Shown here in pieces: positions 1,788 through 6,972 of a stretch of DNA of 7,364 bases. The number at the start of each line of letters is the position of its first letter. Within the stretch, counting starts at the first letter, position 1. The position numbers and the translations under genes were made by a program. The DNA is from a virus (lineage: Duplodnaviria; Heunggongvirae; Uroviricota; Caudoviricetes), in the IMG/VR virus record IMGVR_UViG_2671180366_000008, one strand, 5' to 3'. The notes under the pieces were generated by a model, which ran no database searches, was not told where the DNA came from, and saw only the letters and a program-made list of their open reading frames with translations.

Positions 1788-2531
1788 ATGACACAGACTG
1801 AATCAGCGATTCTGGCGCATGCCCGGCGGTGTGCGCCTGCGGAGTCGTGCGGCTTCGTGATAAGCACGCCGGAGGGGGAGTGGTATATCCCTTGTGTGAA
1901 TATTTCTGCAGAGCCGGAGGCGTATTTTCGTATCGCACCGGAAGACTGGCTGCGGGCAGAGATGCAGGGGGAGATTGTGGCACTGGTCCACAGTCATCCC
2001 GGTGGGCTGCCCTGGCTGAGCGAGGCTGACCGGCGGCTGCAGATAAAAAGCGCACTGCCCTGGTGGCTGGTCTGCCGGGGTGACATTCACAAATTCCGCT
2101 GTGTGCCACATCTGACAGGACGGCGCTTTGAGCACGGGGTGACGGACTGTTACACGCTGTTCCGGGATGCTTATCATCTGGCGGGGACTGAAATGCCGGA
2201 TTTTCATCGCGAGGATGACTGGTGGCGCAACGGCCAGAACCTTTACCTGGACAATATGGCGGTCACCGGCTTTTACCGGGTGCCCCTGTCCTCTGCACAG
2301 GCGGGCGATATTCTGCTGTGCTGCTTTGGTGCTTCGGTACCGAACCATGCCGCCATTTACTGCGGCAACGGTGAGCTGCTTCACCATCTGCCTGAACAAC
2401 TGAGTAAACGGGAGAGGTATTCCGAAAAATGGCAACGACGAACGCATTCAGTCTGGCGTCACCGCCACTGGCACGCATCTGCCTTCACGGGGATTTACAA
2501 CGATTTGGCCGCCGCCTCAGCCTGTATGTGA
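1788..2531 (+). CDS. K: Tail tip assembly protein gpK with JAMM/MPN metalloprotease and NlpC/P60-like domains (247 aa from ATG 1788; alternative internal start at ATG 1962)
   Basis: The frame is open from the ATG at 1788 (MTQTESAILAHARRCAPAESCGFV...), 11 nt after the L stop, and runs to the stop ending at 2531. It contains a JAMM motif, HSHPGGLPWLSEAD (H-x-H-x7-S-x2-D), with an upstream Glu in ...PEGEWY. A downstream Cys (VTDCYTLFRD) and His (ELLHHLPE) pair is consistent with an NlpC/P60-type fold. The supplied ORF 1527..2531 is the same frame extended back into L. The start is uncertain because no strong SD precedes 1788. Confidence 0.85.
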   Translation: MTQTESAILAHARRCAPAESCGFVISTPEGEWYIPCVNISAEPEAYFRIAPEDWLRAEMQGEIVALVHSHPGGLPWLSEADRRLQIKSALPWWLVCRGDIHKFRCVPHLTGRRFEHGVTDCYTLFRDAYHLAGTEMPDFHREDDWWRNGQNLYLDNMAVTGFYRVPLSSAQAGDILLCCFGASVPNHAAIYCGNGELLHHLPEQLSKRERYSEKWQRRTHSVWRHRHWHASAFTGIYNDLAAASACM

Positions 2532-3109
2532 ACACGGCAGCGGAAGCCATTCGCGCCCTGTCGATGCAGATGCCGGGCTTTCGCCGTCAGATGAACGAAG
2601 GCTGGTACCAGATACGTATTGCCGGTTATGACACGGCACCGGAGGCGGTGTACGCCCGTCTTCACGAACAGCTGGGTGAGGGAACGGTCATCCACATTGT
2701 GCCGCGACTGGCCGGGGCCGGAAAGGGTGGACTGCAGATTGTGCTGGGGGCGGCAGCCATCGTGGGCTCTTTCTTCACTGCCGGGGCATCAATGGCGTTA
2801 TGGGGTTCAGCCCTGGCAGCCGGTGGTTTTTCTGCCACCACGATGCTGTTTTCACTTGGAGCCAGCATGATTCTGGGCGGTGTGGCCCAGATGCTGGCCC
2901 CGAAGGCAAAAACACCGGATTACCGCGCAACGGATAACGGCAGACAGAACACGTACTTTTCCTCACTGGATAACATGATTGCCCAGGGGAACCCGATGCC
3001 GGTGCCTTACGGGGAAATGCTGGTTGGCTCCCGCCGTATATCCCAGGACATCAGCACCCGTGATGAAGGCGGGGGCGGAAAGGTCGTGGTTATCGGGCGG
3101 CAGGGGTAA
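2429..3109 (+). CDS. I: Tail tip assembly protein gpI (226 aa)
   Basis: 226-aa ORF (MATTNAFSLASPPLARICLHGDLQRFGRRL...) starting 103 nt inside the 3' end of K in a different frame. A purine-rich SD-like GGGAGAGG lies about 11 nt upstream of the ATG. The C-terminal half is hydrophobic and Gly/Ala-rich (GAAAIVGSFFTAGASMALWGSALAAGGF...), as in lambda gpI. The K/I overlap length matches my recollection of the lambda arrangement. Confidence 0.85.
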   Translation: MATTNAFSLASPPLARICLHGDLQRFGRRLSLYVNTAAEAIRALSMQMPGFRRQMNEGWYQIRIAGYDTAPEAVYARLHEQLGEGTVIHIVPRLAGAGKGGLQIVLGAAAIVGSFFTAGASMALWGSALAAGGFSATTMLFSLGASMILGGVAQMLAPKAKTPDYRATDNGRQNTYFSSLDNMIAQGNPMPVPYGEMLVGSRRISQDISTRDEGGGGKVVVIGRQG

Positions 3110-3155
3110 AAAGAATAAAAAAATCCCGCAGTGATCGCGGACAGGAACTGCGGGA
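3110..3155 (-). terminator. Putative rho-independent terminator oriented for minus-strand transcription
   Basis: An 8-bp inverted repeat, TCCCGCAG (3124-3131) and CTGCGGGA (3148-3155), flanks a 16-nt loop. It is immediately preceded on the + strand by the A-tract AAAGAATAAAAAAA (3110-3123), which reads as a hairpin followed by a T-tract on the minus strand. It sits directly after the I stop codon. Confidence 0.5.
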
Positions 3156-3319
3156 GAGTTACGAAGATTAAGTGTAAGGAATTATTCTTATATCACGACA
3201 AAAAAATTAACGCAGAGAAATTATACGCGCCACAGTCAGTTTGTGAAAATGTGAAGATATTCAGAATTTTTATGCCATTACCGGTTTTAACCAACAGGAT
3301 TATCGGTGGGCATGAAAGA

Positions 3320-3358
3320 AAACCCCGGTATCTGCTGATACCGGGGTTTCTCTTTAGC
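3320..3358. terminator. Perfect 13-bp stem-loop with T-rich flanks on both strands (bidirectional terminator-like hairpin)
   Basis: AAACCCCGGTATC (3320-3332), loop TGCT, GATACCGGGGTTT (3337-3349): a perfect inverted repeat with a GC-rich stem base. It is followed on the + strand by CTCTTT and preceded by GAAAGAA, which gives a TTCTTTC tract after the hairpin on the minus strand. Confidence 0.55.
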
Positions 3359-3452
3359 ATGGCAGAAATGTGTTTCATGCTTTTCGGGCGAAGGATATCC
3401 GACTTCTGTACGGAATGGCAAGTGGCGGTTAATTTATTCAGGGGAAGGCTGT

Positions 3453-6400
3453 ATGGGAAAAGGTGGCGGTAAGGCACACACGCCTCGTGAGGCGAAGGAT
3501 AATCTCAAATCCACGCAGATGATGAGCGTGATTGATGCGATTGGTGAGGGACCGATAGAAGGTCCGGTGAAGGGACTGCAGAGTATCCTGGTGAACAAAA
3601 CCCCGCTGACGGACACGGACGGTAATCCCGTGATACACGGTGTGACGGCGGTCTGGCGCGCCGGGGAGCAGGAGCAGACACCACCGGAAGGCTTTGAGTC
3701 CTCCGGTGCTGAAACCGGACTGGGCGTGGAAGTGACGAAGGCAAAACCGGTGACGCGCACCATTACGTCCGCGAACATTGACCGCCTGCGGGTTACCTTC
3801 GGGGTGCAGTCACTGGTGCAGACCACGTCAAAGGGCGACCGTAATCCTTCCTCTGTCCGGATTCTGATTCAGTTACAGCGTAATGGCCGCTGGGTGACGG
3901 AAAAGGATGTCACCATTAACGGCAAGACCACCTCGCAGTTCCTGGCCTCGGTGATTCTGGATAACCTGCCGCCGCGCCCGTTCAATATCCGGATGCGCAG
4001 GATGACGCCGGACAGCACCACAGACCAGCTGCAGAACAAAACGCTCTGGTCGTCATACACCGAAATCATCGATGTGAAACAGTGCTACCCGAACACGGCC
4101 ATTGTGGGGCTGCAGGTGGATGCGGAGCAGTTCGGCGGCCAGCAGATGACGGTGAACTACCATATCCGCGGTCGCATCATCCAGGTGCCGTCAAACTATG
4201 ACCCGGAAAAACGCACGTACAGTGGTATCTGGGACGGCAGTCTGAAACCGGCATACAGCAACAACCCGGCCTGGTGCCTGTGGGACATGCTGACTCACCC
4301 GCGCTACGGCATGGGAAAACGTCTGGGGGCGGCGGATGTGGACAAGTGGGCGCTGTATGCCATCGGGCAGTACTGCGACCAGACGGTCCCGGATGGTTTC
4401 GGGGGGACCGAGCCGCGGATGACCTTTAATGCGTACCTGGCACAACAGCGTAAGGCGTGGGACGTTCTCAGTGATTTCTGCTCTGCGATGCGCTGTATGC
4501 CGGTATGGAACGGCCAGACGCTGACGTTCGTTCAGGACCGTCCGTCGGATGTGGTGTGGCCGTACACCAACAGCGATGTGGTGGTGGATGATAACGGCGT
4601 GGGTTTCCGCTACAGCTTCAGTGCCCTGAAGGACCGGCACACGGCAGTGGAGGTGAATTACACCGACCCGCAGAACGGCTGGCAGACCTCCACGGAACTG
4701 GTGGAAGACCCGGAAGCCATACTGCGCTACGGACGCAACCTGCTGAAGATGGACGCGTTCGGCTGTACCAGCCGCGGTCAGGCCCACCGTGCCGGGCTGT
4801 GGGTGATAAAGACCGAACTGCTGGAAACGCAGACGGTGGATTTCACGCTCGGGTCACAGGGGCTGCGTCACACACCCGGTGACATCATTGAAATCTGTGA
4901 TAACGACTATGCCGGGACCATGACCGGCGGACGTGTCCTGTCCATCGATGCCGCCAGCCGTACCCTGACGCTGGACCGGGAGGTGACACTGCCGGAGACC
5001 GGCACGGCCACTGTTAATCTGATTAACGGCAGCGGTAAGCCGGCGAGCGTGGTCATCACCGCACACCCCGCGCCTGACCGGATACAGGTCAGCACCCTGC
5101 CGGATGGTGTGGAGGCATACGGGGTGTGGGGACTCTCCCTGCCGTCACTGCGCCGTCGCCTGTTCCGCTGTGTCTCCGTCCGGGAAAACACGGACGGCAC
5201 CTTTGCCATCACGGCGGTGCAGCACGTACCGGAAAAAGAAGCCATCGTGGATAACGGTGCCCGCTTTGAGCCGCAGTCAGGTTCCCTGAACAGCGTCATC
5301 CCACCGGCAGTGCAGCACCTGACGGTGGAGGTGAGCGCAGCTGACGGACAGTATCTGGCGCAGGCGAAATGGGACACGCCGCGGGTGGTGAAGGGTGTGC
5401 GCTTCAGTCTGCGCCTGACCAGTGGTAAGGGAACGGATGCCAGACTGGTGACCACCGCCATCACCGCAGACACGGAGCACCGTTTCAGCGGCCTGCCGTT
5501 CGGGGAATACACCCTGACGGTGCGGGCGATAAACAGCTATGGCCAGCAGGGTGAACCTGCCACCACCACATTCCGGATTGCCGCACCGGCAGCACCGTCG
5601 CGGATTGAGCTGACGCCGGGCTATTTTCAGATAACGGCGGTCCCGCGTCTTGCGGTGTATGACCCGACGGTACAGTTTGAGTTCTGGTTCTCGGAAAAGC
5701 GGATTGCGGATATCAGGCAGGTTGAAACCGCAGCCCGCTATCTTGGCTCGGCGCTGTACTGGATAGCTGCCAGTATCAATATCAAACCGGGCCATGATTA
5801 TTATTTTTACATCCGCAGTGTGAACACCGTTGGCAAATCGGCATTTGTGGAGGCTGTTGGCCAGCCGAGTGATGATGCATCCGGCTATCTGAATTTTTTC
5901 AAAGGAGAGATAGGGAAAACCCATCTGGCTCAGGAGTTGTGGACGCAGATTGATAACGGTCAGCTTGCGCCTGACCTGGCTGAAATCAGGACGTCCATTA
6001 CGGATGTCAGCAATGAAATCACGCAGACCGTCAATAAAAAACTGGAAAATCAGAGTGCGGCAATCCAGCAGATACAGAAGGTTCAGGTTGATACAAATAA
6101 TAATCTGAACAGCATGTGGGCTGTGAAGCTGCAGCAGATGCAGGACGGACGCCTTTATATTGCGGGTATCGGTGCCGGTATTGAGAATACGCCAGCAGGA
6201 ATGCAGAGTCAGGTGCTGCTGGCGGCAGACAGGATTGCGATGATTAATCCTGCGAATGGCAACACAAAGCCGATGTTTGTTGGTCAGGGCGATCAGATAT
6301 TCATGAACGAAGTGTTCCTGAAATACCTGACGGCTCCCACCATTACCAGCGGCGGTAATCCTCCGGCATTTTCCCTGACACCGGACGGAAAACTGACCGC

Positions 6401-6926
6401 TAAAAATGCAGATATCAGTGGCAGTGTGAATGCGAACGCCGGGACGCTCAACAATGTCACAATTAATGAGAACTGTCAGATTAAGGGGAAACTGTCAGCC
6501 AACCAGATTGAAGGCGATATAGTCAAAACAGTGGGTAAGGCTTTCCCCCGTGACTCCCGTGCACCGGAGCGTTGGCCATCAGGAACCATTACCGTCAGGG
6601 TTTATGACGATCAGCCGTTTAACCGGCAGATTGTTATTCCGGCGGTGGCTTTCAGCGGTGCCAGACATGAGCGGGAGAACAGCGATACTTATTCGTCATG
6701 CCGCCTGATAGTACGGAAAAACGGTGCTGAAATTTATAACCGTACCGCGCTGGATAATACGCTGATTTACAGTGGTGTTATTGATATGCCTGCTGGTCGC
6801 GGCCACATGACGCTGGAGTTTTCTGTATCAGCATGGTGGGTAAATGGCTGGTATCCCACAGCAAGTATCAGCGATTTGCTGGTTGTTGTGATGAAGAAAG
6901 CCACCGCAGGCATCAGTATCAGCTGA
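3453..6926 (+). CDS. J: Central tail fibre / host specificity protein gpJ (1157 aa)
   Basis: Uninterrupted 1157-aa ORF with the SD-like GGGGAAGG 5-6 nt upstream of the ATG. The N-terminus ([22 protein letters not shown]...) and conserved blocks ([32 protein letters not shown]; [16 protein letters not shown]; [21 protein letters not shown]; [38 protein letters not shown]) are those I recall for lambda-family J proteins. Lambda J is 1132 aa from memory. Confidence 0.96.
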
Positions 6927-6944
6927 ATTTTATAACCCATATAC

Positions 6945-6972
6945 GGGCGCCAGAAATGGCGCCTTTTTTATT
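6945..6972 (+). terminator. Rho-independent terminator downstream of J
   Basis: The stem GGCGCCA (6946-6952), loop GAAA and TGGCGCC (6957-6963) are followed directly by TTTTTTATT (6964-6972), 20 nt after the J stop. Confidence 0.75.

Follow-up and report, generated by a model that had tools for sequence, protein, structure and literature searches.

A perfect hairpin at positions 3320–3349 of the window, the 7,364-nucleotide stretch of DNA analyzed here (IMG/VR record IMGVR_UViG_2671180366_000008), is probably a Rho-independent transcription terminator at a conserved position ahead of the tail gene J, one that would be passed only by antiterminated late transcription; we place the probability of this reading at roughly 0.6. 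The hairpin sits in an E. coli lambdoid prophage with lambda-like tail genes on the plus strand, and RefSeq E. coli genomes carrying identical DNA annotate its neighbors as the tail assembly protein (I) and gpJ (J). The elements that frame it are as follows:

2429–3109, plus strand: tail assembly gene I (Pfam Lambda_tail_I, E=6e-17)
3320–3332: left arm of the hairpin, AAACCCCGGTATC (repeat finder)
3337–3349: right arm of the hairpin, GATACCGGGGTTT (repeat finder)
3453–6926, plus strand: tail tip and host specificity gene J (Pfam FNIII-A_GpJ and Phage-tail_3)

The I–J spacer spans 343 bp (3110–3452), and no other non-coding gap in the tail operon is of appreciable size. An initial sequence-only reading had placed the hairpin between I and the J ribosome-binding site. 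That location is correct, but the hairpin does not directly adjoin the ribosome-binding site; it ends ~90 nt before the J Shine-Dalgarno sequence AGGGGAAGG (3440–3448), and the J start codon follows 104 nt past the hairpin end. The J leader (3350–3460) is not unusually structured (z=+0.98).

The two 13-nt arms are 100% complementary across a 4-nt TGCT loop (3333–3336), and the repeat finder returned no other perfect inverted repeat of at least 12 bp in the whole window. The GC-rich 10-bp core, 3323–3346, contains 7 G-C pairs, is extendable to 13 bp, and has a folding energy of -19.1 kcal/mol on the plus strand and -18.5 kcal/mol on the minus strand. To the left, the flanking GAAAGA together with the first three A residues of the stem forms GAAAGAAAA over 3314–3322 on the plus strand; to the right, the stem is followed by CTCTTTAGC at 3350–3358. 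Folding of the 3300–3370 segment yielded -32.2 kcal/mol on the plus strand (z=-5.25) and -28.7 kcal/mol on the minus strand (z=-5.91), with 0 of 200 shuffles as good in either case. Dinucleotide shuffling of the whole window (n=300, loop 3–8) produced perfect stems of at most 12 bp and never 13, and the longest perfect stem in 2000 shuffles of the 343-bp spacer (loop 3–8) was 10 bp. The perfect 13-bp inverted repeat with its 4-nt loop, the T-rich flanks on both strands and the improbability of such a stem by chance, all claimed from the sequence at the outset, are thereby borne out.

The hairpin belongs to no dispersed family. A REP/BIME-like palindromic repeat was considered and rejected: of 1450 E. 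coli records that match the spacer module containing the hairpin, 1449 align over at least 80% of the query, and the remaining one is the same locus shortened by a deletion. An apparent second site in phage records arises because the palindrome also matches itself on the opposite strand, and unrelated phage contigs in which the 10-bp stem encloses other loops are coincidences of terminator-like sequence. The palindrome was not found repeated elsewhere in the phage or host DNA searched. An Rfam 15 scan of the whole window with E up to 1 gave no match in the I–J spacer; its only hit in the window was a weak match to an archaeal snoRNA model inside J. Open reading frames that cross the spacer and enclose the hairpin (113 aa on the plus strand, 94 aa on the minus strand) have no Pfam match and were set aside as coding candidates. 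Phage ASU11 carries an annotated 66-aa ‘hypothetical protein’, gp9c (L001 1671–1871, plus strand, ~3272–3472 of the window), that spans the hairpin and runs into the J start; with no obvious ribosome-binding site and no Pfam match for the longer frame that contains it, gp9c is probably an annotation artefact.

Terminator strength was expressed as the score d, computed with the d'Aubenton-Carafa formula and ViennaRNA energies, the absolute values being approximate. The features that enter the scoring are:

3347–3355, plus strand: rightward T-rich tail, TTTCTCTTT, 7/9 T, starting where the 10-bp core ends
3314–3322, minus strand: leftward T-rich tail, TTTTCTTTC, 8/9 T
6946–6963, plus strand: second terminator-like hairpin, GGCGCC-agaaat-GGCGCC then TTTTTTATT, d=+42.1

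The 3320–3349 stem has the form of an intrinsic terminator (GC-rich, ~5–14 bp, short loop) and is followed 3' by a U-run on both strands, UUUCUCUUU on the plus strand and UUUUCUUUC on the minus strand. The core scored d=+22.3 with a T-score of 3.43 on the plus strand, and d=+32.9 with a T-score of 4.15 on the minus strand. These values are comparable to those of the terminator of the adjacent small-RNA gene pasB (+30.1) and the lambda lom terminator (+40.4). Both T-runs are interrupted by C, in view of which the efficiency of termination may be modest, and a simple consensus terminator scanner did not list the site. Natural variants of the plus-strand tail, TTTCTGTTT, TTTTCTTT and GTTCTCTTT, occur among IMG/VR copies. 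The proposal that this is a terminator is thus supported by sequence criteria on both strands; the higher minus-strand score counts against a firmly rightward polarity for this particular copy.

On the plus strand, the hairpin lies downstream of gene I and the tail genes that precede it. The only other terminator-like site on this strand of the window is the 6946–6963 hairpin, 20 nt past the J stop codon, so that J is bracketed by two rightward terminator signals. In phage ASU11, J is bracketed likewise, and a further such signal follows lom. On the minus strand, a window-wide scan identified the pasB terminator as the only site besides the hairpin, and upstream of the hairpin there are only weak promoter-like sequences with 8–9/12 matches, at 3421–3392 (TTGCCA-18-TATCCT) and 3459–3431 (TTCCCA-17-TAAATT). 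Plus-strand promoter-like candidates that could feed the hairpin are poorer still.

The sequence-only reading had spoken of an ‘island’. This is made up of a known small-RNA gene, pasB, which that reading overlooked, and the module that bears the hairpin. The pasB elements are:

~3213 to 3117, minus strand: pasB small-RNA gene, a variant, with a predicted primary start near 3213
3220–3247, minus strand: pasB promoter-like site, TTCACA-16-TATAAT, 11/12, kept in all aligned pasB-bearing spacers
3117–3155, minus strand: pasB terminator, stem 3155–3124 followed by a T7 run at 3123–3117

PasB was described in EPEC E2348/69 as an 83-nt Hfq-dependent minus-strand RNA encoded between I and J homologues (PMC8550237). 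Alignment to E2348/69 (NC_011601 1466261–1466343) places the equivalent of the published 83-nt RNA at 3198 to 3117, and the published Northern probe (AATCCCGCAGTGATCGCGGA; also AATCCCGCAGTGATCGCGGAGCT) matches window positions 3121–3140. The pasB terminator points leftward only, with d=+30.1 on the minus strand vs -61 on the plus strand. According to a 2026 preprint, PasB is widespread, frequently occurs in extraintestinal isolates and is encoded amid genes for phage structural proteins; our recovery of the spacer in 1661 of 5426 complete E. coli genomes agrees with this. PasB and the hairpin are immediate neighbors in the same spacer but separate elements: the hairpin is found ~70–100 nt upstream of the pasB promoter and within a module absent from E2348/69.

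Small RNAs of O157 Sakai can probably be added to the PasB family. EcOnc22/23/24 are Hfq-dependent RNAs of ~85 nt (Tree et al. 2014, PMC4104026). Sakai coordinates are shifted by ~+135 nt between genome versions, a shift we calibrated on AsxR and AgvB with Rfam, and the shifted EcOnc22/23/24 positions fall in equivalent I–J spacers of NC_002695.2 (L128 992–1231, L129 973–1212 and L130 1023–1262). From this shift and a ~70% similarity judged by eye, EcOnc22/23/24 are probably diverged PasB homologues. The EPEC table that lists EHEC homologues gives them for PasA and PasD and none for PasB, and the link may not have been made before. Other prophage small RNAs considered as the identity of the locus, namely svsR, HnrS, AgvB/AsxR and the lambda RNAs PreS/LPR2, were rejected, being situated elsewhere in prophages.

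To the right of ~3277, alignment of the spacers revealed two alternative forms, one long (~176 bp) and one short (~70 bp). The long form is the one present here:

3277–3452: module B, the long right-hand part of the I–J spacer, comprising the hairpin, the 104-nt leader and the J Shine-Dalgarno sequence

The long form, carrying the 13-bp hairpin, is also found in phage ASU11, the PPompW phages and Sakai Sp12, and the short form in E2348/69, PhiR5_1, Stx2c phages, JLK-2012 and Sakai Sp11/14/15. In the corresponding position, the short form has a hairpin unlike the 13-bp one, CAGGCA(C/T)CC-loop-GG(G/A)TGCCTG then TGTTTTTGTG, which has terminator character on the plus strand only and in which one stem pair reads C-G, U-G or U-A among variants. 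In E. coli, a search with 181 bp of the long module found identity of at least 99% in 1441 of 1450 records, spread over 1445 of 5426 genomes; the 13 phage records with the module all show 100% identity. The pasB segment beside it diverges by ~20% from lineage to lineage. Because the module is near-invariant, conservation of the stem arms is uninformative about selection. A pattern scan of IMG/VR for the stem returned only copies with the same core. The suggestion that the hairpin marks the island boundary is not supported, as the variable module begins ~40 bp to its left (~3277) and ends in or at J.

Several natural variants disrupt the locus. In IMG/VR 2869970738_000006 (L176), exactly the hairpin and its right flank (~3320–3366 of the window) have been lost, ~130 nt before J, by a deletion of 47 bp between two AGAAA repeats. 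IMG/VR 2695420596_000001 (L158) and NZRM4165 (L004) are degraded prophages with independent large deletions that end in the right arm, one extending from a portal-like gene (assigned by eye) and the other from gene I. In IMG/VR 2541047932_000014 (L012), DNA that ends in a transposase-like ORF (by eye; an IS element) adjoins the spacer ~20 bp left of the hairpin. These deletions and the IS element resemble the usual instability of palindromic DNA and are no evidence of a recombination function. Two further IMG/VR contigs (L178 and L206) carry a gene resembling Cu,Zn superoxide dismutase (sodC by eye), oriented leftward, between the I stop codon (~649) and the J start (1501); the insert brings its own hairpin and replaces the pasB promoter, and the 3' part of pasB remains. 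With pasB here and sodC in these contigs, the I–J junction appears as a repeated landing site for leftward cassettes.

Comparative evidence bears on the plus-strand reading. Hairpins precede J in a range of lambda-like phages and prophages, and scored as follows:

Lambda, 15466–15479, in a 60-bp I–J gap, GAAACCGCC-tgcg-GGCGGTTTTGTCATTT: d +18.6 on the plus strand, -17.2 on the minus strand
E2348/69-type short spacer: d +12 plus, -38 minus
Serratia phage Stoker: d +33.5 plus, -7.5 minus
Edwardsiella prophage: d +15.4 plus, -45 minus
N15: d +43 plus, -9 minus
mEp237: d +39.5 plus, +11.5 minus
Pseudomonas phage BR52a: d +33 plus, -15 minus

The stems are GC-rich and unrelated to one another, and each is followed by a T-run and lies close to J. 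Searching species-representative genomes with the N-terminal part of J gave at least one locus, that of Edwardsiella, among the matches listed. For N15, the GenBank record AF064539 annotates a stem_loop at 15307–15330, between the I-like and J-like genes, as a ‘putative rho-indep. transcription terminator’; a literature search for a terminator before J in lambda-like phages returned nothing beyond this feature.

To put the pattern on a quantitative footing, we gathered IMG/VR relatives representing three J types, with 77 distinct I–J gaps among them. At a cut-off of d of at least 10, a plus-strand site was present in 72 of the 77 gaps and a minus-strand site in 4, and the coding DNA flanking the same gaps held 21 plus-strand sites in 235 kb (0.09 per kb) and 0 on the minus strand. 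The stems vary by lineage (GCCACC, GCCCGC, CCGCC, GCCCCGC, TCCCGGC, GTCCGC, CCTCC), from which it follows that structure and polarity are shared and sequence is not. Among N15-like gaps, RNAalifold recovered a conserved stem with mostly one-sided (wobble) changes, and in Pseudomonas gaps whole hairpins are replaced, so no common alignment can be made. The 23-kb late operon of lambda contains four sense-strand sites with d of at least 10, three of which fall in the D–E, I–J and lom–stf gaps. The D–E site (NC_001416 6101–6114) is a sense-strand hairpin just before the major capsid gene, with d=+22.

The element is not universal. Genes I and J abut, with no gap and no hairpin, in Providencia PSTCR8lys, Pasteurella Pmp12, phi1026b and Mcat24, and inspection, without scoring, of the sodC-bearing spacers of L178 and L206 found no obvious plus-strand hairpin in the 130 nt before J; the pre-J element is on this evidence dispensable. 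The hairpin studied here shares with the class its location in the I–J gap and its plus-strand polarity (d=+22.3), and departs from it in its distance from the J ribosome-binding site, 104 nt before the J ATG. It is longer than other pre-J examples, further from J, and symmetric. The proposed plus-strand terminator upstream of J draws strong comparative support, from 72 of 77 gaps and from lambda, N15, mEp237, Pseudomonas, Serratia and Edwardsiella.

A model for the hairpin emerges from these comparisons. In lambda, polymerase modified by Q at the late promoter ignores terminators, whereby a pre-J site would stop unmodified polymerase only. Rightward RNA polymerase that has not acquired the modification of a Q-type late antiterminator would halt at the hairpin, and in a lysogen J and the genes beyond it would not be transcribed from upstream. 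Late transcription under antitermination would continue past the hairpin, perhaps not in full; incomplete read-through would trim the level of J and the genes that follow, and in transcripts that extend beyond it the stem-loop may also shield the 3' end of the processed upstream mRNA. The A-run, stem and T-run are symmetric, and a leftward stop is thus expected too: the present copy would also arrest leftward transcripts arising in or near the J start before they reach the pasB promoter and the tail genes. Termination in vivo, passage by Q-modified polymerase, and effects on J dosage or on pasB are inferred. More broadly, and tentatively, the pre-J terminator may be a widely conserved, apparently undiscussed checkpoint that makes J and the fibre or cargo genes antitermination-dependent or sets their dosage, and that is symmetric here to shield, or to end, leftward small-RNA transcription beside pasB.

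The better minus-strand score (d=+32.9, tail TTTTCTTTC) invites the opposite emphasis, in which the hairpin acts mainly on the minus strand, either as the terminator of a second, undescribed leftward RNA of ~75–115 nt, running from ~3385 or 3424 to ~3311 in tandem with pasB, or as an insulator that keeps J antisense transcription from the pasB promoter. The spacer is known for leftward cassettes (pasB here, sodC in L178 and L206), the weak leftward promoter-like sites at 3421–3392 and 3459–3431 could serve such an RNA, and all three IMG/VR tail variants fall on the plus-strand tail and none on the minus-strand tail, numbers too small to weigh. The promoter candidates are, however, poor (8–9/12), and their conservation is uninformative. 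Sakai Sp12 has the exact module (NC_002695.2 ~2217497), yet it has no entry among the 63 Hfq-CRAC candidate small RNAs; no Hfq-bound RNA at the module appears in that published O157 Sakai list with the +135 shift allowed for, which, coming from one list, is weak evidence. The RIL-seq strain, E2348/69, does not have the long module, and pasB functions there beside the short one, in which the hairpin lacks a leftward T-run (d=-38). The rightward polarity before J is, moreover, conserved across phages. The minus-strand option voiced in the sequence-only reading is therefore compatible with the data, having in its favor the better score and pasB lying downstream leftward, and against it the want of a convincing leftward promoter and of a Sakai Hfq entry; as the main role of the hairpin, we consider it unlikely.

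A role at the level of RNA, in which an intercistronic hairpin blocks 3'-to-5' exonucleases or forms a processing site that uncouples decay of the J message, would suit a stem as stable as this one (-19 kcal/mol for the core, 13 pairs) in the tail operon's one sizeable non-coding gap, and with Q-modified polymerase reading through, the hairpin would reside mostly inside lytic read-through mRNA. Against it stands the T-run that follows the stem in the 72 scoring gaps, which marks termination and is not needed for exonuclease protection. RNA-level and termination roles are not mutually exclusive; as the primary explanation, the former is improbable. The hairpin might instead be a relic, either the terminator of a former I–J cassette or DNA carried along with a J allele by recent recombination. 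The near-identity of the module in ~1,440 genomes, vs the ~20% divergence of the pasB segment, suggests recent spread over purifying selection, the I–J junction is a cassette hotspot, and one contig (L176) has lost the hairpin by its 47-bp deletion. The presence of a functional analogue at the same place in unrelated lambda-like lineages, in 72 of 77 gaps vs a background of 0.09 per kb, is difficult to reconcile with relics alone, and we regard this reading as highly improbable. A DNA-level element, whether a hotspot of recombination or deletion or a palindrome bound by a protein, scarcely merits credence: in its favor are the large deletions of L158 and NZRM4165 (L004), independent of each other and both ending in the right arm, the 47-bp deletion in L176 and the IS element ~20 bp to the left in L012, but this amounts to 4 events in well over 1,000 copies, the L004 and L176 junctions show short repeats or similarity as for slippage at any palindrome, the module boundary lies ~40 bp away, the palindrome is unrepeated elsewhere, and no binding protein is suggested.

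Bidirectional intrinsic terminators lie between convergent genes in E. coli. They share with our hairpin the layout of A-run, GC-rich stem and T-run; the hairpin, however, does not have convergent flanks, with the leftward pasB and its promoter facing away on the left and the rightward J on the right. The closest counterparts to the preferred terminator reading are the I–J stem-loops of N15 and lambda, which likewise pair a GC-rich stem with a coding-strand T-run, score positively and occupy the same operon position. They differ in having stems of 5–7 bp, close to J and rightward only, with no sequence homology to the window hairpin, whose stem of 10–13 bp lies 104 nt from J, has terminator scores on both strands and is parted from I by an inserted small-RNA gene. 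Terminators that bound ‘moron’ cassettes in lambdoid prophages, a concept cited in Tree et al. 2014 (PMC4104026), are a further point of comparison; the hairpin after lom in lambda (19613–19632) is an example. They are intrinsic terminators within an antiterminated late operon and delimit an insert with expression of its own, and the I–J spacer holds such inserts (pasB here, sodC in relatives). Our hairpin, however, is not at the pasB 3' end, which has its own terminator, and neither strand offers a gene to which it could be assigned.

Intrinsic, bidirectional and cassette-bounding terminators are textbook elements, and the N15 annotators flagged an equivalent stem-loop; no discussion of this hairpin, or of the breadth of the pre-J pattern, was found in the literature searched. 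Taken alone, this is a routine terminator hairpin, and its value, which is modest, comes from its context: the I–J junction of lambda-like tail operons almost always has a rightward terminator where any gap exists. Such a pre-J terminator may bear on the silence of the host-range module in lysogens and on the tolerance of the pasB and sodC cassettes at the I–J junction. The long two-way and short one-way hairpins, together with the 47-bp deletion in L176, offer a natural comparison for effects on J and PasB.
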